Below the pieces are notes generated by a model. That model ran no database searches. It saw nothing but the letters and a program-made list of their open reading frames with translations, and was not told where the DNA came from. 12,954 nucleotides of DNA from a virus. Taxonomy: Duplodnaviria > Heunggongvirae > Uroviricota > Caudoviricetes. Every line of letters begins with the position of its first letter. Within the stretch, counting starts at the first letter, position 1. Shown here one piece after another: positions 1-12,954 of the stretch. Location: IMG/VR virus record IMGVR_UViG_2778261154_000015, positions 1-12,954 of that record; one strand, 5' to 3'. Both the position numbers and the translations under genes were made by a program.

Positions 1-1119
1 TTAAATAACCAACTTAACCCATTCCTGACCTCGAGTATCGTTATAGCGATCGGTGGTTGCCTGGACTTTATGTCCTAGTAATGTTTTTGTATCGATACCC
101 TGTGCACGGTACAGCCGTTCTGATAGAGAGCGTTGTTCATGAAATGTTGGCGGAGTTTTTCCTGCTGGTGGAATTATCCCAGCCAGATCCCGTGCTTTGG
201 CAAAGTAGTCGCTCAGGTTGTCTTTACTCATCGGCTTCGGTTGTTTCTGGTGCCGACTATGGATTAGATATGGACTTAATATTCTGTCTCGGCACCCATC
301 AATAACTTCTTTTAACGTTATCCCAATGGCATCACAGCGTAGTGTAAGCGGTAACGCCAGACGCATTCCGGTTTTTCCCTGGGTGATATGCAAGTGTTCG
401 TTCCACACATCTGAAAAACGCATGTGGCAAATGTCATCACGGCGCTGACCAGTAACAATCGCAAGAAGCATTGCGTTACGGATAAAGTGTTTTTCAGGCG
501 TTGCATTGTAAATTTTTTGCCAGTCTTCCATGGTGAGCCTGGCTCTGGTTACTTTAGGGATCGGTTTACGGGTAGCCTCCGGAGGATTCCATCCAGGAGG
601 AACTTCCCCTGCATGCTGTGCTTCTTTATAAATATCAACCCATAATCCACGATTTACTCTCGCTGTGCTGACCATGTCTTTATCCAGCCACTCATCCAGT
701 ATTAATGCAAAGTCTCTTACTTCCAGTTCTTTCAATGGGTGGTTTCCCAGACGGGAAACCAGGTATGCAGCCATTCGAGTTTTTTCTTTGTGAGTTGTAG
801 CTGCAATATCTCCATTTTTCAGTCGCGTGTCCTGTATTTTCAGATATCGATCAACCCATGCCTTTAATCTGATACCCCGACGTTTTGTTGCTGACGGACT
901 TTCATCAATTTTGCGCATGAAATATTCAGCTTCTGCTGCAGCTATTCGCTGATTGGCTGTGGAAGCGATTTTTTCTGCCTTACCTTTGTCTGTTCCGAGT
1001 CCGTGAAATTTTCCAGTCACAGGATTTTTATACTGGTAGTAAACTCTGCCAGTTCTGCGATCAAACTTTTCGTAAAGACCGGCTACGTCAGTGCTGTTTT
1101 TTCGTGGCCTCGGTGACAT
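1..1119 (-). CDS. int: Tyrosine recombinase / phage integrase (lambda Int family)
   Basis: 372-aa ORF whose stop (TAA) is at window positions 1-3 on the minus strand. The C-terminal tail TFHEQRSLSERLY...LLGHKVQATTDRYNDTRGQEW closely resembles the catalytic H-x-x-R...Y tail of lambda Int as I recall it. Its start is overlapped by the upstream xis-like ORF, as in lambda. Confidence 0.93.
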   Translation of the reverse strand: MSPRPRKNSTDVAGLYEKFDRRTGRVYYQYKNPVTGKFHGLGTDKGKAEKIASTANQRIAAAEAEYFMRKIDESPSATKRRGIRLKAWVDRYLKIQDTRLKNGDIAATTHKEKTRMAAYLVSRLGNHPLKELEVRDFALILDEWLDKDMVSTARVNRGLWVDIYKEAQHAGEVPPGWNPPEATRKPIPKVTRARLTMEDWQKIYNATPEKHFIRNAMLLAIVTGQRRDDICHMRFSDVWNEHLHITQGKTGMRLALPLTLRCDAIGITLKEVIDGCRDRILSPYLIHSRHQKQPKPMSKDNLSDYFAKARDLAGIIPPAGKTPPTFHEQRSLSERLYRAQGIDTKTLLGHKVQATTDRYNDTRGQEWVKLVI

Positions 1120-1357
1120 GAGTTAAAATCTCCTTCAGTGCATCATCATCGCCAGTATGAATTTCCGGCGCAATTCCCGTTTCACCAGGCCCAACAAATA
1201 CTGCTCGGCGATCTATCAGCCAACGCCCACGAATTTTTTGTGGCCTTGGAACGATGTATCCTAGTTTTCCGTATTTCACCAGGGTAGTGTTTGTTATTGG
1301 GAGACTGAACCGTTTTGGTTTCCACTCGTCGAGCGTTATCAGGTACTGTTCGCTCAT
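1088..1357 (-). CDS. xis: Excisionase (Xis-like small DNA-binding protein)
   Basis: Small ORF directly upstream of and overlapping int by about 30 nt. N-terminal YLITLDEW resembles lambda Xis YLTLQEW. ATG at 1357 is preceded by GGAG at about 8 nt; an in-frame GTG at 1366 is an alternative start. Confidence 0.75.
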   Translation of the reverse strand: MSEQYLITLDEWKPKRFSLPITNTTLVKYGKLGYIVPRPQKIRGRWLIDRRAVFVGPGETGIAPEIHTGDDDALKEILTHVTEATKKQH

Positions 1358-1418
1358 GGCTATCACTCCGGAACGCGCCAGTTGCAGAATATCAACGACA
1401 ACTGGCGACGGTTGAACA

Positions 1419-3860
1419 TTAAAAATCAGCCTGACTCGGGATCAGTTTTTGCCAGATAACTGAAACGTATTTTGCCTGGTAACGGGCGTCATCAAGTGCA
1501 TTATGGCGCTCACCTTCGAATGGAATAGCCGTTCTGGCATCGAAGTCTATGGCTTTCCCCAGCTCAACGATTGTGCGTACATCGCGATCGTTGTAGTAAC
1601 GCCACGGGCAGGGGATCCCCTGCCGTTCGTATGAACGGCGCAAAATCGTGTTGTCGAAGTTGGCTCCATTTCCCCAGACCTGAACAAAAAATTCACCGGA
1701 GTTTTCGTCGATAAATTCCCGCAATTGTAACAGTGCATCATCTAACGGGATTTCATCGGTCATAATGGCAGATTGCGCTTCGCGTGATTGTTTAAGCCAC
1801 CATTTAATGGTGTCCCGATCAATGACTCCGCCAGCAGTTTCCAGATCGATAGTCTTACTAAATTCCGGTCCCATATCTCCGGTTTGCGGATCGAAAAATA
1901 TTGCACCTATTGAGATAATCGGGGCATCGGGATTTTTTCCCATGGTTTCAAGGTCGATCATCAGATGAATCCCCGCTCTGCTGGTGGATGTGAGATTATG
2001 ATGACCGTTCGCCTTAATTAAGGGATCTGACGCCTCGCCAGTTTCACTATCGCTGGCATGATGCTGATTGCCGCCAGTGTTCTCCTTGTGCTGATGCGCA
2101 GTGCCTTCCATTTCCTCCGGATCATTTTCCTGAACTTCAGGCTGATTCTCTCCATCGAATATTTCCTGGTATGTTGCGTCACCCATCACCGCACCACAAT
2201 CAGGGCAGTTGCCGCCACCGCTCTGACCGCAGGCGGTGCAGATCTTTTCCGGTTCCTGTTGCACTACTGGTTCAGGTTGTTTCGTTTCTGGCTCGTTTTG
2301 TTGTGTATTTGGGCTGTTTTGTTCCGCTTTCTGGTCGTTCTGTTCCGTTTCTTGCTGGTTCTGGTTCACAGAATCGCGGGTCTGGATCCCCTTAACCCAT
2401 TTCGGATCATTAGGGTCGCTAATCCCCTCAACAAATTCACCACGCGATACAGCAAGTAACTTATCGGCGTCAGGCTGGCTGATATTGGCTGCCTGCATAA
2501 TTTTGTTTACTTCGTCAGCGGTGACTTTTACTTGGTTAGCGGAACTCACCTGCGACTGAGCATCCAGCGACTGCGCGTTCTGGCCATGTTCAGTTGTATC
2601 CGGTTCCATTGTTTCAGTTGTTGCCTGTTCACCTGCCATTGCGTCAGATGGTTGTGGTTTTTCTTCTTCTGTTTCACGCTCAGTAACCACCTCGCGGTTA
2701 ATTTCTTCCAGGATATCTTTTTCCGGCGTATGCCGGGCAGCTGTGAGAGTTTCCTTGCTGGGGTTCTCGTGATCAGTTTCCGTCAAATAGGCGTTGATAT
2801 ACCCCTGAAGGCGTCCCGGGTAGTGATAAAATTCAGGGTGTGCGCTTCGGATAAGTGCAAAAATAGCGGCGCGGGAATAGTCCAGAATACCCGGGGTTGC
2901 ACGAAGTGCTGCGGACCATTCTTTGAACGGACTTTCTTTGTTCAGAACTACTTCTTTTGCGCGACGATAAACGCTGCCCGGAATTTCATAAATATTAAAA
3001 TCCATCGGAAGTGTGGCTGCTGCAATCTCCACATCCAGTGTGTCGAGGGTGTGTACTAAATTCGGATTGCGATCGGTTTTGTTCCCACCGCCAGCATTAG
3101 CACCGGAAGCCGTGCGGGTGATGCGTGAAACACGATTTCCTTTCATCCACTCTTTTGTCAGCAGACCCCGATCAGTGTAGTCAGCGTCCAGGTATGCTTC
3201 GAAAAAAGCAGTTATTAGTCCCTGGTCTGAATTACCAGGATTAGGGAAAACTTTGTCAGTGTCACGAACCAGTTTGTGGAGGTCGCGAATCTCCAGCGAG
3301 TCGAGCAGACTGGTTTTATGCGAAATAGCCAGGGCAGTAACAGCCGGTAGTTCTTCAGCCTGTGCAATGTGTAATGCCTGGAGTTCGTCGCGTGAAACGT
3401 GCGTTACTGGTTTTTCGCTGCCGTGTTGAGCAAGCCAACGAATGGGCAGTTCCTGACCGGAGACAGGCAGAAGCATGCTCTCCTCAATCTCAGTCATGTC
3501 TTCGCCGTTGATGTTGGTATTGTCAGTGCTGGCTGGTTTGTCCTGAACAGAGGGGGAAGGGCCGATAAATGTCATTGTGATGCCATCTTTCCCGCCTTTT
3601 TCATAGCGGTTGCAGAATTCAGTATCAAACACGCCTTCTGGCGGAAGGTCGTCAACAACGGGCAAATTGACGCGGACGGGTTTTTTAAAGTCGTCTTCAT
3701 CATAATCGTTGTCATCCATTGCGGTAATGCAGCGGGAGATTGCAACAGATAATTTTTTTGCTGTAGTCCAGTAAAAACCACCTTTAATTCCCAGGCGTTT
3801 TCTTACTTTGTCATTTTTTGCTTCGCAATATAGTGCAAATTCTTCTTTATCAGTGCTCAT
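1419..3860 (-). CDS. Large multidomain protein with C-terminal DnaQ-like (DEDDh) 3'-5' exonuclease domain; probable full-length counterpart of ydfE, often annotated exodeoxyribonuclease VIII-like
   Basis: 813-aa ORF. The C-terminal region carries Exo I (IDLETMG), Exo II (VWGNGANFDNTI) and Exo III (HNALDDARYQAKY) motifs. Upstream of it are a Cys-x2-Cys...Cys-x2-Cys zinc ribbon (CTACGQSGGGNCPDCG) and a long Q/N/E/T-rich low-complexity linker. It sits between xis and ydfD, where the ydfE-type gene lies in Qin-type prophages. Confidence 0.8.
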   Translation of the reverse strand: MSTDKEEFALYCEAKNDKVRKRLGIKGGFYWTTAKKLSVAISRCITAMDDNDYDEDDFKKPVRVNLPVVDDLPPEGVFDTEFCNRYEKGGKDGITMTFIGPSPSVQDKPASTDNTNINGEDMTEIEESMLLPVSGQELPIRWLAQHGSEKPVTHVSRDELQALHIAQAEELPAVTALAISHKTSLLDSLEIRDLHKLVRDTDKVFPNPGNSDQGLITAFFEAYLDADYTDRGLLTKEWMKGNRVSRITRTASGANAGGGNKTDRNPNLVHTLDTLDVEIAAATLPMDFNIYEIPGSVYRRAKEVVLNKESPFKEWSAALRATPGILDYSRAAIFALIRSAHPEFYHYPGRLQGYINAYLTETDHENPSKETLTAARHTPEKDILEEINREVVTERETEEEKPQPSDAMAGEQATTETMEPDTTEHGQNAQSLDAQSQVSSANQVKVTADEVNKIMQAANISQPDADKLLAVSRGEFVEGISDPNDPKWVKGIQTRDSVNQNQQETEQNDQKAEQNSPNTQQNEPETKQPEPVVQQEPEKICTACGQSGGGNCPDCGAVMGDATYQEIFDGENQPEVQENDPEEMEGTAHQHKENTGGNQHHASDSETGEASDPLIKANGHHNLTSTSRAGIHLMIDLETMGKNPDAPIISIGAIFFDPQTGDMGPEFSKTIDLETAGGVIDRDTIKWWLKQSREAQSAIMTDEIPLDDALLQLREFIDENSGEFFVQVWGNGANFDNTILRRSYERQGIPCPWRYYNDRDVRTIVELGKAIDFDARTAIPFEGERHNALDDARYQAKYVSVIWQKLIPSQADF

Positions 3861-3953
3861 TATTGATAAACCTCATCACAGATTTAAGGGTGAACAAATC
3901 TCTGCCATTGCTGACATATAAGAATGAAACTGGATATTTATTACGGTGCTGTT

Positions 3954-4142
3954 TTAAAATCCTGCCGGGATTTCGTTATCCTGGTGAATAACTTTATCGA
4001 CCGGATAACAGTTGCCTGGGATTTTCTGTTCGGTTGCTGCGGCCATACATTCCTGCATTGTTCTGTGAACACTGACTGCAATATCAACTGGCTCTCCGGA
4101 AACAAGAAAAACCGTCAGAATAAGTGCAAATACTGGATTCAT
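3954..4142 (-). CDS. ydfD: YdfD-like small protein with N-terminal hydrophobic segment (reported lysis protein of the dicB operon)
   Basis: 62-aa reading frame from the internal ATG (MNPVFALILTVFLVSG...). Its start overlaps the dicB stop in an ATGA arrangement. Length and position match ydfD of the K-12 dicB operon as I recall it. Confidence 0.6.
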   Translation of the reverse strand: MNPVFALILTVFLVSGEPVDIAVSVHRTMQECMAAATEQKIPGNCYPVDKVIHQDNEIPAGF

Positions 4143-4327
4143 TGTGCACATCCTTTTGGCATCAGACGTAAACGGGCCAGCATTGAAACAATGCATACTT
4201 TATTTAATAACTCCCGTTCGTGTTTTCTTTTGTTAATGGCCTCTTCAGTGAATACAGGATTACTGATAGTGACACCAATTTCAAAACAACCTTCAGACGT
4301 ATTAACGTTTGGTAATAACGTTTTCAT
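4139..4327 (-). CDS. dicB: Cell division inhibitor DicB
   Basis: 62-aa frame MKTLLPNVNTSEGCFEIGVTISNPVFTEEAINKRKHERELLNKVCIVSMLARLRLMPKGCAQ, near-identical to the K-12 DicB sequence as I recall it. It lies downstream of DicF on the same strand. Confidence 0.9.
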   Translation of the reverse strand: MKTLLPNVNTSEGCFEIGVTISNPVFTEEAINKRKHERELLNKVCIVSMLARLRLMPKGCAQ

Positions 4328-4496
4328 TATCGCGCCCTCAACAATGAGTTTTGTGATGCGGTGCCTGGTGCTTCCAGGTGACGTTAACCAGTTAACAATT
4401 AACGCCGGATACAGAGAATCCACCCATAACACTGTTTTCGGTTTTAACTGTTCCGCGTGCGCTCAGCCGCATTCACCACATCACAAAATTCACTTT

Positions 4497-4554
4497 AAAA
4501 AGGGCGGCAGAGCAGTCACGGAGTAAAACTGATACCGCCAAACGTCACCAGAAA
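4497..4554 (-). ncRNA. dicF: DicF small regulatory RNA (Hfq-dependent antisense sRNA targeting ftsZ and other mRNAs) with its intrinsic terminator
   Basis: The minus-strand sequence reads UUUCUGGUGACGUUUGGCGGUAUCAGUUUUACUCCGUGACUGCUCUGCCGCCCUUUUU, matching the DicF sequence as I recall it. It ends in a GC-rich hairpin (GGCGG...CCGCC) followed by a U run, and lies about 170 nt upstream of dicB. Confidence 0.85.
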
Positions 4555-4887
4555 ATTGATAACAGAGGGCGTTGCAGCGGGGTTGTCACTTAAGCGTATG
4601 GTCAACCTGACAACCCGGTGTCCTCAACGGGGAAGGAATAACCCCGCCATACTTACCGCCGCGCCATTTCGCGGATTGCCACAACCGGAAGCGCACGGTC
4701 GACGAAAATTTAACGACAGACCATTTATGAACTAACAGCCTCGCCGTGCGCTTTCGCGTTATGCCCTGACTTTTCAGGGACATATCCTTTCAGTAAACTG
4801 TCAGTGCCGGATGCTCACCCGTGTCCGGCGCACGCACTCCACCTCACCCGTGGAGAACTCCTTAATTACCAACCCTCAGGAGGGTGA

Positions 4888-5121
4888 ATGTTAAAATCAA
4901 CTCTTATTGCTAAATGCCTTTATCAAAATCGCATGGTAAGCAGCATTTCAATAGGCGAGTCTGCAGTTAAAAGTATTTTCGAAGAGTACTTTCCCGGGCA
5001 TGATTTTAATAAATGGAATACCAAATTACCGCCAGCAGTTTCAACGCGTATTCTGAAAGCAACTGAAAGAGCAAGTACAATTCGCGTTAACTATTTCATT
5101 AAAGATTTGTGGGATCTTTGA
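4888..5121 (+). CDS. Hypothetical protein (77 aa), unrecognised; part of an AT-rich insert
   Basis: ATG preceded by a strong Shine-Dalgarno (cAGGAGGgtgaATG). AT-rich coding sequence on the opposite strand to the surrounding operon. Its 3' end overlaps the 3' end of the convergent 135-aa ORF by 23 nt. No family recognised, so coding status is uncertain. Confidence 0.45.
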   Translation: MLKSTLIAKCLYQNRMVSSISIGESAVKSIFEEYFPGHDFNKWNTKLPPAVSTRILKATERASTIRVNYFIKDLWDL

Positions 5122-5506
5122 TATCCACAGAGCCTAAAGTATGTGCATATGGATGTGCTATTGTGCGCCCTCGCAGATTTGCATCATTTTCTAAATTCAC
5201 TGAACGAAACAGGGCATCAACAAGGCTCTGTACAATGCAAAGGCAATCGAAGACTGTCGCTGTTTCTGTTTTGATTGATGAAAGAACATGGCCATTCACG
5301 CAAACAGAAATTACCCGTTCATTAACATCGCTTTCCTGCTTTTGATTATCAGAACCATATAGCCCAGAAAAAGCATTGCGCACATTACGAACCATATTAT
5401 CGATGGTTTCTTTTTTGGTGTATGCCGGGTCAATTTTCACCAGACTATCACCGAGAGTCGTTGCAGCAATTGTCTGGATTTCTTTTGGTAAATCTTTAAA
5501 TTCCAT
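5099..5506 (-). CDS. Hypothetical protein (135 aa), unrecognised; extra gene within the dicB operon
   Basis: ATG at 5506 preceded by GAGG at about 6 nt, and only 22 nt downstream of the ydfC stop on the same strand. No hydrophobic segments and no motif I recognise. Visibly AT-richer than neighbouring genes. Confidence 0.6.
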   Translation of the reverse strand: MEFKDLPKEIQTIAATTLGDSLVKIDPAYTKKETIDNMVRNVRNAFSGLYGSDNQKQESDVNERVISVCVNGHVLSSIKTETATVFDCLCIVQSLVDALFRSVNLENDANLRGRTIAHPYAHTLGSVDIKDPTNL

Positions 5507-5528
5507 TATTAGCCTCGTTGGTTAACCA

Positions 5529-5747
5529 TTAACGTGGGTATGTAATCATTCTGGCAATGCTTAATGCCGCTGCTTTTTCCAGATTGGTGATATCCTGCTC
5601 CAGAGCGGACAGATTTTCAGCCTGCTTAGCCCTGGCTTCATTGGCCCATTTCAGGTCCTGCGCAGCCTTAATTTTCTGGTGCATCCACTCATAAAGTTCA
5701 TCATCGGTATAGTCTGGCGCGATGATGACGGGTTCTCGTTTCTGCAT
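5529..5747 (-). CDS. ydfC: YdfC-like protein (72 aa)
   Basis: 72-aa frame from the internal ATG (MQKREPVIIAPDYTDDELYEWMHQ...) preceded by GAGGA. Length and position (third ORF of the dicB operon, after the 51- and 42-aa ORFs) match ydfC. The upstream part of the longer ORF-track frame is basic and low-complexity, and is probably not translated. Confidence 0.7.
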   Translation of the reverse strand: MQKREPVIIAPDYTDDELYEWMHQKIKAAQDLKWANEARAKQAENLSALEQDITNLEKAAALSIARMITYPR

Positions 5748-5775
5748 ACTGATTCCTCGCGTGCTGTTTCGCTTA

Positions 5776-5904
5776 TCAGCCGTTAGATTTTGCCGAACTG
5801 GAAAGCGCCTGTTTAAATTCGCTGAAGCTGAGAGCTTCTTCGCCTTCGGCAAGGCCTTCGAAGTATTCTTCGTAAGCCTTTTCCATGATTGTGTCGAAAT
5901 CCAT
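5776..5904 (-). CDS. ydfB: YdfB-like small acidic protein (42 aa)
   Basis: Not in the ORF track (below its size cutoff). By manual translation: MDFDTIMEKAYEEYFEGLAEGEEALSFSEFKQALSSSAKSNG. Its ATG lies 1 nt after the ydfA stop (TGAtATG) with an AGGTGA-type SD inside ydfA. The 42-aa length matches ydfB. Confidence 0.6.
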   Translation of the reverse strand: MDFDTIMEKAYEEYFEGLAEGEEALSFSEFKQALSSSAKSNG

Positions 5905-5905
5905 A

Positions 5906-6061
5906 TCACTCACCTGAGTTTCTTTCCAGCCAGCGACGGGCACCATTTTCGGTTTTAAACGTTTTGCTTTTGGTATACGTCATGGCGGTAAACGTTCCAT
6001 CCTGGTTAGGGAACACGCCGCACACCAGAGATTCGTTGTTGCCAAGATCGATAGTATCCAT
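5906..6061 (-). CDS. ydfA: YdfA-like small protein (51 aa)
   Basis: 51-aa frame from the internal ATG (MDTIDLGNNESLVCGVFPNQDGTFTAMTYTKSKTFKTENGARRWLERNSGE) preceded by GAGG at 6 nt. It is the first ORF downstream of the putative dicB-operon promoter, and its length matches ydfA. Confidence 0.65.
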   Translation of the reverse strand: MDTIDLGNNESLVCGVFPNQDGTFTAMTYTKSKTFKTENGARRWLERNSGE

Positions 6062-6129
6062 GCTGACCTCATTTCCCCTTAACGCCGGGTGGCGGAACTG
6101 TTTGCTGAGAGCACCGTGCGGTGTCTTGA

Positions 6130-6175
6130 TGGATGTTAATTTAGTTTTCTCATGGTAATTGGTCAAGTATTTTTG
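6130..6175 (-). promoter_or_regulatory. Candidate sigma70 promoter for the dicB operon (dicBp-like)
   Basis: On the minus strand: TTGACC (plus coordinates 6161-6166), a 17-nt spacer, then TAAATT (6138-6143). This lies about 80 nt upstream of ydfA, in the 190-bp gap between dicA and ydfA. Promoter call made by eye only. Confidence 0.4.
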
Positions 6176-6252
6176 ATAAGAAATCTCAATATTTAATGCA
6201 AAACAAAGCCAATACATTGAAATGTAAGGCTTTAAAATTTGTGAAGGGGGGG

Positions 6253-6660
6253 TTATTGATGTTTGTTACGTTTACGAGCTTCTAGTAGCTCGGTGAATAG
6301 GCGATTAAAATTCTCAACGCGGGCACGGAGTTCGCTGATTTGTGCTTGCTGCTCTGATTTTGGAAGTGCGCGATACAATCGCAACATCTCCAACTCATCT
6401 TCCGATAGGTCTAAGGCGCTGTTGAGTGCAACTGGGGGATCTGGTGTTTTATCCTCGTCACCAAACAGTATCCAGGTTGGTGAACATTGCAATACCTCAG
6501 CTAGGCGATGCAAATTTTGCCCGCGCGGGGCTGTATGGTCGCTTTCCCATAGTGAAATTGATGAGCCAGATACGCCAGCAGCTTTGCTTAAATCGTTTTG
6601 ACTTAAACCAACCTGTTTGCGTCTTTCTCTAATTCGTTGACCTAAAGTTTTCTCGTTCAT
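6253..6660 (-). CDS. dicA: HTH XRE-family repressor, DicA-like (P22 C2 / lambda cI functional analogue)
   Basis: 135-aa ORF with an N-terminal HTH (LSQNDLSKAAGVSGSSISLWE) and the conserved LQCSPTWILFGDEDK segment. Same length as K-12 DicA. Divergent from a Cro-like gene, with a short operator-bearing intergenic region between them. Confidence 0.85.
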   Translation of the reverse strand: MNEKTLGQRIRERRKQVGLSQNDLSKAAGVSGSSISLWESDHTAPRGQNLHRLAEVLQCSPTWILFGDEDKTPDPPVALNSALDLSEDELEMLRLYRALPKSEQQAQISELRARVENFNRLFTELLEARKRNKHQ

Positions 6661-6737
6661 ATTTAGATATCTTAATAACTCTTGACTTGAGATTCCTTGA
6701 ATGATTACTATTAAGAAAACTCAACTTTGGAGGGGCG
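6661..6737. promoter_or_regulatory. Divergent dicA/dicC promoter-operator region
   Basis: 77-bp gap between divergent repressor and Cro-like genes. Plus strand has TTGACT (6682-6687), an 18-nt spacer, TACTAT (6706-6711), then GGAGG before the dicC ATG. An inverted pair CTTAATA (6671-6677) / TATTAAG (6709-6715) flanks the promoter. Confidence 0.5.
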
Positions 6738-6965
6738 ATGTTTAAATCAGACGTAATTAATTTTTATGGGACGAAAGCCAAAGTAGCGAAAGCTGCTGGA
6801 GTTGATCCATCTGCTGTTTCTCAATGGGGGAAACTGGTTCCTGAAGGTCGCGCGATGCGCCTGCAAGAGGCATCCGGCGGGGAACTTCAGTACGACCCCA
6901 AAGTTTATGACGAATATCGTAAGGCAAAACGACCTGGGAAGGTGATTCATGAAAATCAGGCATGA
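6738..6965 (+). CDS. dicC: Cro-like regulator DicC
   Basis: 75-aa ORF divergent from dicA with a GGAGG SD. The LVPEGRAMRLQEASGGELQYDPKVY segment matches DicC/YdaS-type Cro-like proteins as I recall them. Confidence 0.8.
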   Translation: MFKSDVINFYGTKAKVAKAAGVDPSAVSQWGKLVPEGRAMRLQEASGGELQYDPKVYDEYRKAKRPGKVIHENQA

Positions 6966-7371
6966 GCACATCGAATCAGTGTTGTTAGCCCTGGCATCTG
7001 AAAAAGGGCAGGCATGGGTTGCCAGTGCAATTACTGAAGAATATCTGCGCCAGGGGGGCGGCGAATTGCCCCTGGTACCAGGCAAGGACTGGAACAATCA
7101 GCAGAATATCTATCACCGTTGGTTGAAAGGTGAAACGAAAGCGCAAAGGGAAAAAATTCAGAAGCTGATCCCAGCAATTCTGGCAATCCTTCCGCGCGAG
7201 CTGCGTCACCGACTCTGCATCTTCGATACCCTGGAACGCCGTGCATTACTGGCGGCGCAGGAAGCGTTGAGTACGGCAATTGATGCGCATGATGACGCAG
7301 TCCAGGCCGTTTACCGTAAAGCGCATTTCAGCGGTGGTGGGTCGTCCGACGATTCTGTCGTTGTGCATTGA
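6949..7371 (+). CDS. YdaT-family protein (CII-like regulatory protein, historically annotated toxin YdaT)
   Basis: 140-aa ORF overlapping the dicC 3' end by 17 nt. The N-terminus MKIRHEHIESVLLALASEKGQAWV resembles Rac YdaT as I recall it. It occupies the cII position after the cro-like gene. Confidence 0.7.
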   Translation: MKIRHEHIESVLLALASEKGQAWVASAITEEYLRQGGGELPLVPGKDWNNQQNIYHRWLKGETKAQREKIQKLIPAILAILPRELRHRLCIFDTLERRALLAAQEALSTAIDAHDDAVQAVYRKAHFSGGGSSDDSVVVH

Positions 7372-7461
7372 TGTTTATGCCGAACCTCCTCTGGTTCTGT
7401 TGATTGGGGAATCACAGATTATATCCGGAGGAAGGTTCGGCACCAGACGAGGTTTCTATAT

Positions 7462-8217
7462 ATGAGCATGAAACTAATGGCAAAAGCAATGGAAATTAAA
7501 GTGGGTAATCCATTGCGTAAGCTGGTTCTGATTAAGCTGGCTGATAATGCCAGCGATCAGGGCGAGTGCTGGCCCAGCTACCAGTATATCGCTGACCAGT
7601 GCGAGATTAGCAAGCGTTCTGTGATTAATCATATTGCGGCGCTTTGTGAGTCCGGGCTGGTAAAAAAAATCACCCGGAAAGGTGAAAAAGGTAATACAAG
7701 TAATATCTATCTCCTTCATCTGGATGGTGCAGAAAATTTACCGGGGAATAGTGCAAATAATTCGCTACATTGTGCATCAGATGCATCGGGTAGCGCAGGA
7801 GTTGCACCTGTTGCCAGTGCAGGAGTTGCACCCAGAACCAGTCACTCTTTTGAACCAGTCAATGAACCTGATGTTGGTGGATCTGCTGACGCAGATCCAC
7901 AGGTCAGTCATCGCGCAAAAAACAAAATCGACTGGCAGAGGGTTCTGGACAGCTATCACGAAATCCTGTCTGAAATGCCATCAGTGAAAATTCTGACGGA
8001 TACCAGGAAAAAAAATCTGCGGACGTTCTGGCAGAAATTCGGTTTTGACCAGCAGCGATGGGAGTCCTATCTGCGATACGTTGCTGAGAACTGTCGCTGG
8101 ATGCTGGAAGATCGTCCCAATGGCAGCGGTGGGTTCTGGAAGCGTAAAAACCTGGATTACCTGATCACCGAACGGTGCTATGTCGCTGTCAAAGAGGCGC
8201 GGGCAAATGACAGATAA
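7462..8217 (+). CDS. Phage replication initiation protein (O-like, N-terminal winged-helix HTH_36-type domain)
   Basis: 251-aa ORF. N-terminal LRKLVLIKLADNASDQGECWPSYQYIADQCEISKRSVINHIAALCESGLVKK is typical of phage replication-initiator HTH domains. It lies immediately upstream of, and is translationally coupled to, the DnaB-like helicase gene. It contains an internal direct DNA repeat. Confidence 0.8.
   Translation: MSMKLMAKAMEIKVGNPLRKLVLIKLADNASDQGECWPSYQYIADQCEISKRSVINHIAALCESGLVKKITRKGEKGNTSNIYLLHLDGAENLPGNSANNSLHCASDASGSAGVAPVASAGVAPRTSHSFEPVNEPDVGGSADADPQVSHRAKNKIDWQRVLDSYHEILSEMPSVKILTDTRKKNLRTFWQKFGFDQQRWESYLRYVAENCRWMLEDRPNGSGGFWKRKNLDYLITERCYVAVKEARANDR
7795..7832. repeat. Two direct copies of GCAGGAGTTGCACC, 24 bp apart, inside the O-like gene linker (iteron-like)
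   Basis: Copies at 7795-7808 and 7819-7832, encoding the duplicated AGVAP peptide. The position is analogous to the lambda ori iterons within gene O. Confidence 0.5.
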
Positions 8218-9610
8218 CACCTTTCCGGTGCCATACCGGGTCGATGCCGAACAGGCAGTGCTGGGGTGCCTGATGGTAAACACCGACACTGAGCGTGCGG
8301 GGCTGGTGTATTCGATGCTGAAACCGGAGTCGTTTTACGTTGCGGCGCACAGGGTTATTTTCCGTGAAATTCGCGGACTTTTCCGCGCCGGAAAGCCTAC
8401 GGACCTGCTCAGCCTTGCGAACGTGATCGAGGCGAAAAAACTGGATGCTGAGACTGGTGGCTTTGCGTACCTTGCTGAAATCAGCAGGAGTGCCACGCTA
8501 TCGGCGATGGTTCACTACGCCGGGATTGTGCGGGAAAAATCCATCCTGCGGTACGCGGTGGAAAAATTACATGCGTGCATCGGGATCATGAATCAGCCGA
8601 CAGACACGAGTGCGACAGAACGACTTGGCGCAGTTCAACAGGTCATTGGCACGATGGCAGAGTATGCCAGAACAGGAAAAACAGGCGGTCTGCGCCCGGT
8701 AAGTGATGTGGTTAACGACTGGATTGATGATCTTGAGCGTCGCTTTTCCAGCCCGGAGAACGCAGCGGGTCTGACGCTGGGGATTAGCTCTCTGGATCGG
8801 CTTATGGCCCCCAAACATGTGCTACGTGGTTCGCTGGTAGTGATTGGTGCAAGGCCGAAAATGGGTAAAAGCGCCTCGCTGAACAGGATTGTGACGCATT
8901 TTGCTCTGAATCATCGTCTGCCCACACTGGTATTCACCCTGGAAATGACAGATCGCAGCCTGGTTGAGCGCATGGTTGCGCAGGAGGCGAGGGTAAATTC
9001 TGAAATTTTTTATGTCGGTGCCAGTGATGACTCGGATATGGCGCGGGCGATGGCGAAAGCCGCAGAACTGGCAGAATCAAACCTGATGATTGACAGCACA
9101 CCAGGGGTAACGCTGGCCCATGTGATCGCTGAATGCCGGAAGGTTAAGCGTCAGCGTGGTGTTGTCGGCCTTGTGGCGATCGATTACCTGACGCTGATGA
9201 AGGCGGAAGCCGCGGAGCGTCGTGATATTGCTTTCGGGGATATCACAACGGGCTTAAAAAATCTCGCTAAAGAGCTGGACTGCGTGGTTTTACTTCTGAC
9301 GCAACTTAACCGAAAACTCGAGGACAGGGCAGATAAACGCCCCACACCAAGCGACAGTCGCGACACCGGGCAGATTGAACAGGATTGCGATGTGTGGATT
9401 GGGTTGTACCGGGATGCTGTCTACAACCGTAACGCAGACTCTCAGCTTATGGAGCTGATTCTCCGTCTGAACAGGGAGGGAGCAACAGGAACAGCATACG
9501 CCCTGATGGATAACGGTTCAGTGACTGATGTCAGCGCAGAGGATGCTGCCAGACGTCTGAGACTTGGTGGTCCGGCACGTAAACCCTACGCACAGACGGA
9601 GGATTTCTGA
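8207..9610 (+). CDS. Replicative DNA helicase, DnaB family (phage-encoded)
   Basis: DnaB N-terminal-domain-like segment (DAEQAVLGCLM), Walker A GARPKMGKS, Walker B-like LVAIDYL, and LLLTQLNR. The ATG at 8207 overlaps the upstream stop and is preceded by AGAGG; the ORF-track start at 8180 is an alternative. Confidence 0.9.
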   Translation: MTDNTFPVPYRVDAEQAVLGCLMVNTDTERAGLVYSMLKPESFYVAAHRVIFREIRGLFRAGKPTDLLSLANVIEAKKLDAETGGFAYLAEISRSATLSAMVHYAGIVREKSILRYAVEKLHACIGIMNQPTDTSATERLGAVQQVIGTMAEYARTGKTGGLRPVSDVVNDWIDDLERRFSSPENAAGLTLGISSLDRLMAPKHVLRGSLVVIGARPKMGKSASLNRIVTHFALNHRLPTLVFTLEMTDRSLVERMVAQEARVNSEIFYVGASDDSDMARAMAKAAELAESNLMIDSTPGVTLAHVIAECRKVKRQRGVVGLVAIDYLTLMKAEAAERRDIAFGDITTGLKNLAKELDCVVLLLTQLNRKLEDRADKRPTPSDSRDTGQIEQDCDVWIGLYRDAVYNRNADSQLMELILRLNREGATGTAYALMDNGSVTDVSAEDAARRLRLGGPARKPYAQTEDF

Positions 9611-9771
9611 TGCAGTCACTTTGTGATGTTCTGGAAAAAACGCTGCTTCAGTTCGGGCGGGGGGAAACGGCGGAGCAGAAAACACGAAACCAGAAGAATC
9701 TGGTTCATCTGAGAAAAATGATTGATGCAGCCAGGCTGGCTGAAAAGCTGGAAAAACAAAACCGGAGGTAA
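9610..9771 (+). CDS. Small hypothetical protein (53 aa), translationally coupled
   Basis: Not in the ORF track. Its ATG overlaps the helicase stop (TGATG). By manual translation: [53 protein letters not shown]. It exactly fills the gap to the next gene, whose SD lies within its 3' end. Confidence 0.4.
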
Positions 9772-9776
9772 TTTTA

Positions 9777-10538
9777 ATGGAAACTGTTTTTGACGCACTG
9801 AAAGCAATGGGAAAAGCCACATCCACAGAACTTGCTGCGCGACTTGATATCAGTCGTGAAGAAGTGCTGAACGAACTATGGGAACTGAAAAAGGCTGGTT
9901 TTGTTGATAAAAGCGCGTACACCTGGCGTGTGGCTGATAACAACGTTCAGCAGGAACAGCCAGCGCAGGCAGAACTGCCGGAAGAAACCACCACGGCAAC
10001 AGTAGCGAAAATCTCAGAGTGCGATTTAACCGCGACGATTGAACAACGCGGACCACAAACGGCTGATGAGCTGGCTACATTGTTTGGTACCACATCACGT
10101 AAAGTGGCTTCAACGCTGGCAATGGCAATCAGCAAAGGTCGTCTGATTCGCGTAAATCAGGGCGGTAAATTTCGTTACTGCATACCGGGCGATAATTTAC
10201 CAGCAGAGCCGAAAGCAGCATCGGTAGCGGAAACTGATGGTAAGGCCTTTCCTCAGCCCGCAGGTGTTGCATTACCAGTACAGGAGGCTGCAACACAGGA
10301 AGATATTAAAACAGAAACGGTGGCGGGCATTGTGCAGTCGCTGCCATTGTTCACCGAAACGCGAGCGGATGACCTGGTTTTACCATCGCTGCATATGGCA
10401 AACCGCGAACTGCGTCGGGCGAAAAGTCATGTCCAGAAGTGGGAGCGTGTCTGCGCCGCGCTGCAGGAGCTGAACAAGCACCGGGATATTGTTCGACAGA
10501 TTACTGATATTTCTCGCCGTGTTGCATCGGAAAAGTGA
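9777..10538 (+). CDS. Hypothetical protein with two predicted winged-helix-like segments
   Basis: 253-aa ORF with a GGAGG SD at 8 nt. Two segments look like winged-helix DNA-binding units (N-terminal ...[28 protein letters not shown]... and central ...[30 protein letters not shown]...), followed by a C-terminal coiled-coil-like tail. Confidence 0.75.
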
Positions 10539-10553
10539 TTGCCGGAGGCACCT

Positions 10554-10946
10554 ATGGCAAAAGTATTTACACCAGAAGAGCGGGAAGAAGTGAAGGCGCG
10601 CATTGTGGAACTCGTGCGCCTGAGCGGACGAGAAACTTTTCGACAACTGGCAGATAAAACGGGTGTCAGTAAGACCGCTATTCGTCGTTTATCTGGTGCG
10701 CTTGCGGCCAGTGGTGATGTCTGGCTCTCTGATTGCGGGGTATTTCCATCAGAGCAGGCGTATCGCGTATGGCGTAAGACACCGGAGAAGGCTGCTGACC
10801 CGACACTGATTCGAAAGTTACCTGACGGAGAAATACGCCGCTACGACAGGCGTCAGAACATAATCTGTAGCGAGTGCCGGAAGAGCGAAGCCATGCAACG
10901 TGTGCTGGCGTTTTATCAGGGGAATTTTCAGGAGGTGGTACTGTGA
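10554..10946 (+). CDS. Hypothetical protein with probable HTH segment (130 aa)
   Basis: ATG at 10554 preceded by GGAGG at 6 nt; the ORF-track start at 10539 is a TTG. Contains a FRQLADKTGVSKTAIRRL HTH-like segment. Confidence 0.7.
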   Translation: MAKVFTPEEREEVKARIVELVRLSGRETFRQLADKTGVSKTAIRRLSGALAASGDVWLSDCGVFPSEQAYRVWRKTPEKAADPTLIRKLPDGEIRRYDRRQNIICSECRKSEAMQRVLAFYQGNFQEVVL

Positions 10947-11003
10947 GTGAAATTAGTTATCAGGCACTAATTGCCGCAGGCATTTGTATCAAAGGAGAGT
11001 GAC

Positions 11004-11360
11004 GTGGAAATAAAACCAGAAGATGAGTTAAGTAATATTGTTTTATTTCCGGTAAAAGAGGATGACCCTCGTAATCAGGTTAATTTTCTTTATGAGCCAT
11101 CGGAAAGACCATATTGCCATCACGCCTCTGTTCGGGTTGACGAAAAAGAGCGTCAGGTCCGCTGTAAAATCTGCGGTGCAGTTGTGGAGCCATTTGACTG
11201 GATGCTCTCTGTGGCAAAAAGAGAAACCAGACTGGCAGATGATGTAAGGCTATTGCGCCAGGAGGAACAGGAAAGGCGGAAAAATATAGAAAAGTTAATT
11301 CAGATTGAGCGTAACGCGAAAGCGCGGATACGCAGGGCGACAAAATCCAGAACTGAATAA
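11004..11360 (+). CDS. Hypothetical zinc-ribbon protein with basic coiled-coil tail (about 118 aa)
   Basis: GTG at 11004 preceded by AAGGAG at 6 nt; the ORF-track start at 10971 is a TTG with no SD. Contains CHH...C-x2-C (PYCHHASVRVDEKERQVRCKICG) and a basic C-terminus. Confidence 0.6.
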   Translation: MEIKPEDELSNIVLFPVKEDDPRNQVNFLYEPSERPYCHHASVRVDEKERQVRCKICGAVVEPFDWMLSVAKRETRLADDVRLLRQEEQERRKNIEKLIQIERNAKARIRRATKSRTE

Positions 11361-11410
11361 TTAAATTTAGCACTGTAAATAAAATCAAATCCTTAACTGG
11401 AGGTATATCT

Positions 11411-11623
11411 ATGTTAAATACACAGAAAACCATTAATGCGGAAAAATATAACGAGTGGGTGAGGAAATTCTCTGAGCAGATTTTTAAAATTACTGGCGAC
11501 GAGAATGCGGCAAAAAATGAATTAGAGCCGTGGACACCTGAAGGAGTCGACCCAAATTATTGCTGGTGGGATGTTGATCCAGTTGATGCTGCAAATGAAG
11601 CTATGAGTTATCACAACGATTAA
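11411..11623 (+). CDS. Hypothetical small protein (70 aa)
   Basis: ATG preceded by GGAGG at 8 nt. Acidic, Trp-rich C-terminal half. No family recognised. Confidence 0.7.
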   Translation: MLNTQKTINAEKYNEWVRKFSEQIFKITGDENAAKNELEPWTPEGVDPNYCWWDVDPVDAANEAMSYHND

Positions 11624-11658
11624 TGTCAGGAGGCCGCCCGAGAGGGCGGTAATGAAAA

Positions 11659-12627
11659 ATGACTGAATTAACCAAAGAGCAATTAATCGAAGAAGCAAAA
11701 TTAAAAATAGCGATTGCGAAATGCCACCCCAATTCAGGGATGGCCCGGGTGGAGGGCGAGTTATTCAAAATTGCACTGGCATCGCTGGAAGCAGAACCGA
11801 TAGCGTGGGAATGCGGTGAAAACATAATCCTGTTTAACCCTGACACAGTTGAAGCATACGCAAAACGTGCGGAGATATCGCCTAAACCACTATATGCCGC
11901 GCCGCCAGTTCCTGTAATACAGGCTGATGTCGCGCAAGCAATTGAAAATCTCAAGCAGAAGTTAGTGGAATGCAATCGCTATAACTACTGCGCAGATGCA
12001 GTTAAAGATGTTGAGGATGCCAGCCGCGTCTTGGCACTCCAAAATCAAAATATGTCAGCGCCGATAACGCCGGAGGCCATTGAAAACGCAATTGAATACA
12101 TCCGCAGTATCGCTTTTCACATCGATGAAGACGATTACCACGGCAAGCATATTGCGTATTTCATGCGACAAGCACTGGTCTGGCTGGAAGGGCATTCATG
12201 CAGCGACGACAGACAGGGTAAAGCCGGGAATCAACCAGTACGCGGCAACCAGGCTGCCGAATCCAATCGCAGTGATGAGTGGACTGGCAATCCTGATATT
12301 GATAACGCCATCATCATGCTCGACCGCATAGATACGGCGGAAAGTTGCGATGATGACCGTATTGAGGCTGTTAAGGCTGTTTTGCGTAGACTGGCTGGCA
12401 ACTATCCGGTAACTCCGGATGGTTGGATAAGCTGCAGTGAGCGAATGCCTGATGATGGTCAGCACGTAATTATTTTATGTGATGGCGCATTCGTTCTTTA
12501 TGCGCAATATCGAGACGGTGAATTTTTTGATGTCGTCCGCAATGGTGAGGAGTTCTTCGAAACGCAGAGCCGCAATGTAACCCACTGGATGCCGCTACCA
12601 GAACCGCCGAAGGAGGTGAATCAATGA
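11659..12627 (+). CDS. DUF551-domain protein (322 aa)
   Basis: The C-terminal segment WISCSERMPDDGQHVIILCDG...VTHWMPLPEPPKE matches the DUF551 signature common in enterobacterial prophages, as I recall it. The N-terminal two-thirds is unrecognised. Confidence 0.85.
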   Translation: MTELTKEQLIEEAKLKIAIAKCHPNSGMARVEGELFKIALASLEAEPIAWECGENIILFNPDTVEAYAKRAEISPKPLYAAPPVPVIQADVAQAIENLKQKLVECNRYNYCADAVKDVEDASRVLALQNQNMSAPITPEAIENAIEYIRSIAFHIDEDDYHGKHIAYFMRQALVWLEGHSCSDDRQGKAGNQPVRGNQAAESNRSDEWTGNPDIDNAIIMLDRIDTAESCDDDRIEAVKAVLRRLAGNYPVTPDGWISCSERMPDDGQHVIILCDGAFVLYAQYRDGEFFDVVRNGEEFFETQSRNVTHWMPLPEPPKEVNQ

Positions 12628-12707
12628 GCTGGCCTGAAGCATTCACAACGGTAGGAATTACAATGGCGGTGGAGCTGGCGGTGTATTCGATTTGCTGCTG
12701 GGGCTAA
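12624..12707 (+). CDS. Small hydrophobic peptide (27 aa), putative
   Basis: Not in the ORF track. ATG overlaps the DUF551 stop (ATGA) and is preceded by AAGGAGGTG at 5 nt. By manual translation: MSWPEAFTTVGITMAVELAVYSICCWG. Confidence 0.35.
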   Translation: MSWPEAFTTVGITMAVELAVYSICCWG

Positions 12708-12718
12708 AGCATTTTAAG

Positions 12719-12749
12719 ACGCCTTGCTCATAAAGGCGGGGCAAGGCGT
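12719..12749. other. Perfect 9-bp stem hairpin (ACGCCTTGC ... GCAAGGCGT) in an intergenic region
   Basis: Inverted repeat at 12719-12727 and 12741-12749 with a 13-nt loop. No clear U-tract follows on either strand, so a terminator call is not supported. Confidence 0.3.
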
Positions 12750-12849
12750 GCATAGGGTATGTTTAGTTAAACATTGATATAACCAAATCTTATTTTCTGT
12801 TGCTGCGATGAGAAGGCGGGCACATATTTATCATGCAGGTGCTCGTCTG

Positions 12850-12954
12850 ATGTGGGAGGTTATCGTGCTGGCACTGAAATGCGCGCTGGCTATTGCGGCT
12901 GTAATGGCAATTTATTGTCTTGTTATTGTTCTTATGGATCACCTTTCTGATTGA
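12850..12954 (+). CDS. Small hydrophobic single-helix peptide (34 aa from ATG; 29 aa from GTG at 12865), putative
   Basis: By manual translation: MWEVIVLALKCALAIAAVMAIYCLVIVLMDHLSD. GGGAGG lies 5 nt before the in-frame GTG. The stop TGA is at the last three bases of the window. Confidence 0.3.
   Translation: MWEVIVLALKCALAIAAVMAIYCLVIVLMDHLSD

Follow-up and report, generated by a model that had tools for sequence, protein, structure and literature searches.

A conserved convergent gene pair in the early-left operon of lambdoid prophages and its plausible reciprocal expression

When two small prophage genes on opposite strands run into each other at their 3' ends, does the overlap couple their expression or is it an accident of packing? 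This question is raised by a 12,954-nucleotide (nt) stretch of viral DNA (positions 1 to 12,954 of the IMG/VR virus record IMGVR_UViG_2778261154_000015, Caudoviricetes), analyzed at its full length and hereafter called the window, in which open reading frames (ORFs) of 77 and 135 amino acids (aa), p77 and p135, converge. The original prediction, made from the letters of this sequence, held that the two ORFs overlap by 23 nt, that read-through of the dicB operon transcript would be antisense to the whole 77-aa ORF, and that this could couple p77 expression inversely to operon induction. We find that the convergent module is genuine, widespread and uncharacterized. On balance, we favor the reading that p77 and the C-terminal domain of p135, which we named VNG for a conserved Val-Asn-Gly motif, form a conserved two-gene accessory module of lambdoid prophages that lies tail-to-tail in the early-left operon and is reciprocally expressed. 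The elements of the pair are the following:

4888..5121, + strand: p77, a 77-aa ORF (PHROG 10348) whose orientation opposes the early-left (dicB) operon
5099..5506, - strand: p135, a 135-aa operon ORF (PHROG 1363)
5342-5506, - strand: N-terminal domain of p135, common to alternative alleles
5099-5341, - strand: C-terminal VNG domain of p135, the conserved convergent partner of p77
5099..5121, no strand assigned: 3'-end overlap of p77 and p135, 23 nt

Judged from their comparative record, both p77 and p135 are genuine genes under purifying selection, a conclusion that rests on family matches, independent gene calls, kept length, selection, a confident fold and the number of homologs. The p77 protein matches PHROG 10348 over residues 1-77 of 77 (E = 1.1e-47) and p135 matches PHROG 1363 (E = 2.4e-46, over 1-130 of 139), with its C-terminal half also matching PHROG 23433 (E = 1.4e-9); each of these families is annotated as 'unknown function'. 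In a 100%-identical E. coli locus, PGAP calls both ORFs with the same ends as hypothetical proteins (WP_000920491.1 and WP_000394519.1). Homologs of p77 are 77-78 aa long and 43-72% identical across the Enterobacterales, with hosts that include Klebsiella, Salmonella, Yersinia, Serratia, Morganella, Proteus, Xenorhabdus, Photorhabdus, Dickeya and others, and a profile search of 1.84 billion representative proteins returned 163 p77 clusters, nearly all of them stand-alone proteins of 74-80 aa. The median dN/dS of p77 is 0.19 (75 informative pairs). Its AlphaFold model has five helices (pLDDT 96.8), and the protein is predicted to be soluble (GRAVY -0.13).

Neither p77 and p135 nor the alternative alleles with their small ORFs, described below, have a match in Pfam, NCBIfam or PADLOC; their PHROG matches are confined to families of 'unknown function', and the PADLOC-DB defense profiles gave 0 families at E up to 1 for p77 and p135. 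Comparison of the two proteins with PDB sequences, solved folds and viral predicted folds returned nothing beyond their own family. The papers searched make no mention of WP_000920491.1 or WP_000394519.1, and a search around ydfC, dicF and antisense transcription starts found no report of a plus-strand transcript at the p77 site. A p77 homolog of 43% identity also lies on a marine gammaproteobacterial chromosome (a Psychrosphaera sp. metagenome-assembled genome; L006, 3989-4228), where it adjoins a glycoside-hydrolase-like gene without a VNG partner and is the sole unpaired homolog that we saw.

The first ~55 residues of p135 are a domain common to other alleles, and residues ~60-125 make up the separate VNG domain, with the pattern VNGxxL..T..AVAADY..F....L....LExEAN..GKT..H. 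In other genera the VNG domain is a stand-alone protein of 75-80 aa with 113 relatives, and it is modeled as a beta-hairpin followed by two helices (pLDDT 86-90). Some partners (L077 4212-4685; P0136, P0162-P0164) have an N-terminal ClpX-type zinc finger (PF06689) fused to VNG, and this fusion hints at a link to ClpX or its adaptors. A pairing of a basic p77 with an acidic partner was considered and rejected: the pI values are 9.5 and 5.3 in the window, but the family medians are 5.8 and 5.8.

How general is the convergent arrangement? We assembled two sets of loci, one seeded with p77 and one with the partner, and the pairing results cover the sampled p77 subfamilies. The same 23-nt overlap recurs in ~60 E. 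coli-type viral contigs of the p77-seeded set. Every one of the divergent p77-seeded prophage loci (Proteus, Photorhabdus, Xenorhabdus, Klebsiella-like and other hosts), in which p77 is 58-69% identical and the partner 29-42%, has a convergent VNG partner with a 23- or 26-nt overlap, which is more than chance would give. Among the partner-seeded loci, 63 of 68 have an adjoining p77-family ORF on the opposite strand, and 60 of 61 scored convergent pairs overlap by 23-69 nt (23 nt in 17 pairs, 26 in 14, 33 in 16, 51 in nine, 53 in one and 69 in three degenerate loci). None of the >120 loci examined departs from the convergent orientation, and these include several p77 subfamilies and four unrelated E. 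coli cassettes. Among GenBank phage records, the two genes occur together in 12 and neither occurs in any other; the isolated phage Evi is one of the 12, with the pair between ydfC and kil. On this comparative evidence, the tail-to-tail pairing is ancient and nearly invariant, while the overlap length is not.

Prophages of Hafnia and Serratia place the pair in a recognizable early-left context. Their gene order is cro, a divergent cI (HTH and S24 domains), a strong terminator, a PL-like promoter, the partner and, convergent to it, p77, followed by exonuclease, xis and int; the terminator on the cI side is bidirectional in one case. The hexamers of the PL-like promoter are the same as those of PR, and the partner is 76-79 aa long. 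This layout makes the partner the first early-left gene and p77 an antisense island crossed by every PL transcript. Given that first position behind PL, a lambda N-type antiterminator was considered for the partner and rejected: its core is folded (pLDDT 86-90), the N-termini of partners are variable with no conserved Arg-rich motif, and there is no Pfam N-protein match.

If the pairing is so constant, what is the overlap itself? The 3' ends of p77 and p135 share exactly 5099-5121, 23 nt, TTAAAGATTTGTGGGATCTTTGA, by the ORF list. The TAA stop of p135 is the complement of T5099-T5100-A5101, that is, of the last two bases of p77 codon 71 (ATT, Ile) and the first base of codon 72 (AAA, Lys). The p77 subfamilies all end in a strongly conserved ..V(D/N)xFI(K/R/E)(D/E)LWD.. 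sequence, and the final 7-10 residues of the partner are variable (IKDPTNL, ITEAKGP, LTDSTDP). In the partner frame, ATY-AAR (Ile-Lys) reads as TAA or TGA on the complementary strand; with Glu or Arg at p77 codon 72, the stop comes from the complement of TTY-A (Phe-Ile), 3 nt further on, and the overlap is 26 nt. Because the conserved p77 codons supply the antisense stop, overlap length shifts with the p77 subfamily (23, 26, 33, 51 nt). The overlap is a by-product of zero-spacer packing, in which the partner ORF runs into p77 until the F-I-K codons (TTY ATY AAR) stop it. As far as sequence comparison can tell, the conserved feature is the convergent pairing and not the 23 nt.

The overlap also forms a near-palindrome, AAAGAT..ATCTTT (ATTAAAGAT-TTGTGGG-ATCTTTGAT at 5095-5125 of the window), which accounts for Ile-Lys-Asp near the C-terminus of both proteins (..FIKDLWDL and ..DIKDPTNL). 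This feature is present in several relatives, not all, and the A/U-rich hairpin that it gives is not significant. Neither strand of the surrounding 81 nt (5070-5150) shows unusual RNA structure (z -0.39 and -0.04), and no terminator-like site was found at the overlap.

The pair also behaves as an exchangeable cassette. K-12 Qin is without exactly p135 and p77, the missing segment running from just past the ydfC stop to the p77 Shine-Dalgarno sequence, and it keeps the 330-nt leader/DicF-precursor region (the ydfC-dicF spacer) at ~97% identity. In E. coli prophages, the interval from ydfC to the dicF leader can hold any of at least four alleles, none of which is in K-12 Qin. Each allele consists of a conserved N-domain (MEFKDLP...GLY), its own C-terminal domain and its own convergent small ORF, with a common distal leader (allele loci L087-L089, L163-L165, L166-L245; window 4888-5506):

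p135 with p77 (PHROG 10348): overlap 23 nt
201 aa with 63 aa (PHROG 2605): overlap 23 nt, of unrelated sequence
179 aa with an 80-aa zinc-ribbon-like protein (PHROG 10133): overlap 20 nt
212 aa with 69-73 aa (PHROG 4274): overlap 0 nt, the genes abutting

Nearly all of 80 N-domain-seeded loci carry p135/p77, 201/63 or 212/73; the 179/80 allele comes from a separate look-up outside those 80. The cassette is AT-rich (GC 0.37-0.41 vs 0.46-0.56 in the flanks), and in its presence/absence polymorphism and atypical composition it resembles a prophage accessory, or 'moron', locus. Exchange of the C-domain, convergent small ORF and proximal leader as one unit suggests that every small ORF functions together with the domain opposite to it. 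The best E. coli match (L001) is 100% identical over 4400-5600, yet has a different immunity region, with a LexA-family repressor and a frameshifted cro (L001 6956-8338) vs the DicA-like/P22_Cro/YdaT set of the window (6253-7371). An identical cassette beside different immunity regions indicates that the cassette moves between hetero-immune prophages.

What would transcription of the surrounding operon do to p77? The window spans the immunity region of an E. coli lambdoid prophage together with its integrase-proximal arm. It encodes an integrase, an excisionase, an 813-aa ExoVIII/Rv2179c-like exonuclease, ydfD (DUF1482), dicB, the DicF RNA and ydfC/B/A, along with an HTH_3 DicA-like repressor, a divergent P22_Cro gene, YdaT and replication genes. 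A repressor with divergent Cro, followed on one strand by ydfA/ydfB/ydfC, DicF, dicB and ydfD, identifies a dicBF (Qin-type) early-left operon; the assignment is based on Rfam DicF, Pfam HTH_3/P22_Cro/DicB/DUF1482/DUF1391, PGAP names and alignment to K-12. The features that bear on transcription of p77 are these:

6253-6660, - strand: DicA-like repressor gene (HTH_3), with the operon promoter-like site just downstream
6138..6166, - strand: early-left (dicB-type) operon promoter-like site, TTGACC-N17-TAAATT, 9/12
5529..5747, - strand: ydfC, directly upstream of p135 (PGAP in the identical locus, PHROG 1744)
4800..4887, + strand: structured leader of p77, with hairpins at ~4804-4831 and ~4837-4855 and a small one around the Shine-Dalgarno AGGAGG at 4878-4883
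4771..4799, + strand: weak candidate p77 promoter, TTTTCA-N17-TAAACT (position weight matrix scan)
4502..4553, - strand: DicF small RNA gene (Rfam RF00039, 76.7 bits, E = 7e-16), beyond p77 on the operon strand
4139..4327, - strand: dicB (Pfam DicB, E = 6e-39; PGAP annotation in locus L001)

In this arrangement p135 is the fourth gene of a minus-strand operon that starts at the promoter-like site 6166-6138. In K-12, DicF and DicB come from a single polycistronic ydfABC-dicF-dicB-ydfD transcript, which is repressed by DicA and from which RNase E and RNase III excise DicF (PMC5069750, PMC9438474). Since dicF and dicB lie downstream of p77, the K-12 transcript is polycistronic and no terminator-like site was found on the minus strand between the promoter-like site (from 6138) and 5121, antisense read-through of p77 appears obligatory: by analogy with K-12 operon biology, expression of the operon must yield RNA antisense to the whole of p77. 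The geometry originally proposed was thus exact, as judged by the ORF list and the PGAP ends, and its claim of read-through fully antisense to the 77-aa ORF, which might have been cut short by a terminator before 5121, was if anything understated, with DicF and dicB both lying beyond p77.

Several further elements were seen around the module. A sub-threshold Rfam match to STnc100 covers 4350-4490 on the minus strand (36.5 bits vs a gathering threshold of 47), in the dicF-dicB spacer and the 5' region of dicB. In prophages outside E. coli, DicF-like hairpin/terminator elements (GGCGG...CCGCCCUUUUU) are seen at positions that vary relative to the module: one (L072 3874-3922, - strand) lies ~80 nt beyond the p77 start and scores 25.7 bits with Rfam DicF, below threshold, and another, in Hafnia (L158 ~3860-3925, + strand), lies in the PL leader ahead of the partner. 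Xenorhabdus/Photorhabdus-type loci encode a CsrA-like small protein (MLILTRR...REEIY) directly past the p77 leader in the early-left operon (L070 3721-3900, L071 3725-3919 and L081 ~3640-3849, all on the - strand). Decay of the module takes both forms, with p77 frameshifted or bearing an internal stop beside an intact partner in L005, L085 and L189 and the partner truncated beside an intact p77 in L153-L155, and no consistent order of loss was seen (L005, L085, L189, L156, L153-L155).

Does p77 have the means to be transcribed on its own? In all of the non-E. coli p77 subfamilies, a ~75-nt leader before the p77 start (L003 and L070-L162; e.g. L161 4452-4530, - strand) is more conserved than the protein. 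Its invariant alignment columns read GTGnTATnnT and so coincide with the information-rich positions of the extended -10 promoter (TGnTAnnnT). This motif stands 29-34 nt (mode 31-32) before the ATG in 42 of 51 distinct leaders and occurs anywhere in 12% of shuffles. Unrelated ORFs, coding for a 66-aa zinc-ribbon protein and for one of ~150 aa, can stand in the place of p77 behind this leader (L094, L122, L135), which thus behaves as a portable expression unit. The leader contains three short inverted repeats with compensatory changes (GCCTG/CAGGC vs GCCGG/CCGGC, and CTTGG/CCAAG vs CTCTTTAG/CTAAAGAG vs CCTTC/GAAGG). No Rfam family matched the p77 leader, either in the window or in eight related loci. 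A promoter motif of its own, as would be expected of a moron, is present in the relatives (42 of 51 leaders), and the window has the weak candidate at 4771-4799. The 100 nt before the p77 ATG of the window fold on the plus strand only (-36.5 kcal/mol, z -4.04, 0 of 200 shuffles as good; z -0.04 on the minus strand), and the 4800-4887 sequence is common to other E. coli cassettes and K-12. A hairpin at 4763-4781 (GCCCTGACTTTTCAGGGAC, or CCCUGAAAAGUCAGGG on the operon strand) resembles a lambdoid boxB stem-loop; it overlaps the candidate p77 -35, and K-12 has the same hairpin.

We propose that p77 would be transcribed independently, presumably in the lysogen, like other antisense-oriented prophage accessory genes. 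On loss of the repressor, early-left transcription would cross all of p77 in antisense to reach dicF and dicB (exo, xis and int in relatives), and polymerase collision and sense-antisense pairing should shut p77 down while the partner protein is made. The two proteins would thus be expressed reciprocally, and the pair probably target each other or a shared component, for instance as a lysogen effector and its early cognate antagonist. Reciprocal antisense-coupled expression is plausible from the architecture, and the inverse coupling suggested in the original prediction appears well founded in that respect. Its interpretation of the overlap stood only in part: the conserved convergent layout and the promoter motif of p77 relatives favor a regulatory relationship, but the 23-nt overlap is not a conserved or functional unit, its length ranging from 0 to 69 nt among subfamilies and cassettes and its sequence lacking structure.

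A number of observations weigh against this proposal. Expression of p77 in the lysogen is assumed. The TGnTAnnnT motif is absent from 4554-4887 of the window, and the candidate promoter at 4771-4799 is weak and would not count as significant, since this best sigma-70 candidate scores 9.3 vs shuffle maxima with a median of 7.7 and a 95th percentile of 11.0. The Shine-Dalgarno AGGAGG of the E. coli leader is enclosed in a small hairpin, so p77 translation may be poor or restricted in E. coli. The inverted repeats of the leader in other genera show no strand asymmetry by G-U pair counts, minimum free energy or z-scores. VNG is also found unaccompanied by p77, both in the 201-aa allele (with its 63-aa ORF) and in L093, L094, L122 and L135, and E. 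coli p135 alleles differ by ~15% beside an identical p77. One E. coli cassette merely abuts and one degenerate partner-seeded locus has a 52-nt gap between the genes, so overlap is not required. Finally, the family and structure searches above gave no clue to the function of p77 or p135.

It is possible, although we doubt it, that the genes are real and linked while their overlap and orientation reflect compact packing of a mobile cassette with no regulatory role, the link being one at the protein level or none. The variable and mechanically explained overlap length, the cassette that abuts at 0 nt, the lack of structure or a terminator in the overlap and the general compactness of phage genomes would all fit. 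However, packing does not readily explain a convergent orientation in all of more than 120 loci, spanning several subfamilies and four unrelated E. coli cassettes, and the dependence of downstream early genes on reading through p77 makes antisense transcription unavoidable. A more far-reaching reading, which we hold to be rather improbable, is an undescribed two-protein system, in which an effector expressed in the lysogen from a portable extended -10 leader is matched by an early-left antagonist or 'self-immunity' protein, the layout enforcing co-inheritance and exclusive expression. The effector may serve superinfection exclusion, defense or host modulation, and the antagonist, as the first early-left gene, may be made once the prophage is induced or a cell infected. 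On this reading, the four alleles of E. coli would represent polymorphic effector-antagonist pairs at a hotspot beside the immunity region.

It would seem unlikely that the 3' overlap is itself regulatory, with the paired mRNA 3' ends forming an RNase III substrate, as in lambda OOP/cII, that sets the stability of one message or both. A 3'-overlapping antisense RNA does control lambda cII (PMC7067206), and synonymous (third-position) variability of p77 is slightly lower inside the overlap (0.84 vs 1.07-1.42 bits). Much of that lower entropy, however, comes from the single-codon Trp (1 of 7 p77 codons in the overlap) and from dual coding. Further, the overlap ranges from 0 to 69 nt in unrelated sequences, and read-through operon RNA pairs with all 234 nt of p77, to which 23 nt add little.

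We give still less credence to a toxin-antitoxin or abortive-infection module in which one protein is toxic and the other neutralizes it, with antisense control as in type I systems. Tight two-gene linkage, a prophage location beside the immunity region, cassette-like swapping at a polymorphic site, and YdaS/YdaT-like and ParE/PaaA2 genes alongside in related loci are in keeping with such a module. Yet Pfam, NCBIfam and PADLOC returned no toxin, antitoxin or defense family. Type I toxins are small (usually <60 aa), hydrophobic and membrane-active, whereas p77 is a soluble helical protein of 77 aa (pLDDT 96.8, GRAVY -0.13), and type II pairs are co-directional bicistronic genes with recognizable domains, whereas p77 and p135 are convergent. 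No small antisense RNA gene turned up, Rfam giving only DicF in the window and eight related loci, so that read-through operon mRNA would be the one antisense RNA to expect, and p77 is frameshifted beside an intact partner in some loci while the partner is degenerate in others, with no obvious pattern. The likeness to antisense-controlled toxin systems that had been suggested for this locus therefore did not hold up, given a soluble five-helix protein without a toxin or defense family match. That one or both ORFs are spurious and the overlap an ORF-calling artifact, as the lack of a named family for either might suggest, is refuted beyond reasonable doubt by the comparative data (kept length, dN/dS of 0.19, a confident fold, PHROG families and hundreds of homologs).

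The gene pair, which we favor as a reciprocally expressed accessory module, is present in ~12% of complete E. coli genomes (645 of 5,426) and in many prophages of other Enterobacterales. In those genomes, DicF and DicB production must transcribe over the antisense-embedded p77. If the two units interfere, p77 would affect the leakiness or induction of an operon that inhibits cell division and excludes phages, and operon induction would in turn switch p77 off. The site beside the prophage repressor is a home of exclusion and defense genes such as rexAB and bstA, and a polymorphic convergent pair with a portable promoter there is a reasonable place to seek new lysogen-expressed functions.

How does the module compare with known systems? 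By sequence, it is a member of none of the moron, OOP/cII, sas/sieB and promoter-switch systems, each of which it resembles in some respect. Prophage accessory ('moron') genes that lie antisense to lytic operons have been described, for example STMMW_20121 in Salmonella prophage ST64B (Owen et al. 2020, PMC7067206). Like these, p77 is small, of foreign composition and encoded on the strand opposite to the repressed phage operon that surrounds it, with a promoter motif in relatives and cassette swapping; unlike them, it always comes antisense with a specific convergent partner on the operon strand, and its expression in the lysogen is assumed. Lambda OOP RNA, likewise a convergent transcript close to the immunity region, overlaps the early gene cII at its 3' end (PMC7067206). 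However, OOP is a 77-nt non-coding RNA with a defined terminator, whereas both partners here code for protein, the overlap length varies and there is no terminator. The P22 sieB/esc and sas system is similar in logic only, as an early-left prophage accessory function whose output is switched by a phage antisense RNA. The sas RNA is short and, through the translation of a single gene, switches between two in-frame products, whereas neither p77 nor its partner was seen to resemble SieB in sequence or fold, and the p77 locus has no such predicted small RNA. Temperate-phage switches built on convergent promoters, such as pR/pL of coliphage 186 and PR/PRE of lambda, control the repressor and lytic genes directly. 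As in those switches, the Hafnia/Serratia PL and the p77 extended -10 motif face each other, over ~650 bp, so that interference would be expected, but the weaker arm of the p77 module expresses an accessory protein. The operon backbone is that of K-12 Qin dicBF, which has the same DicA-like repressor, ydfA/B/C, DicF, dicB and ydfD and a nearly identical 330-nt ydfC-dicF spacer. In K-12, p135 and p77 are precisely missing, and because K-12 is without the cassette, published descriptions of the dicBF operon omit the antisense gene.

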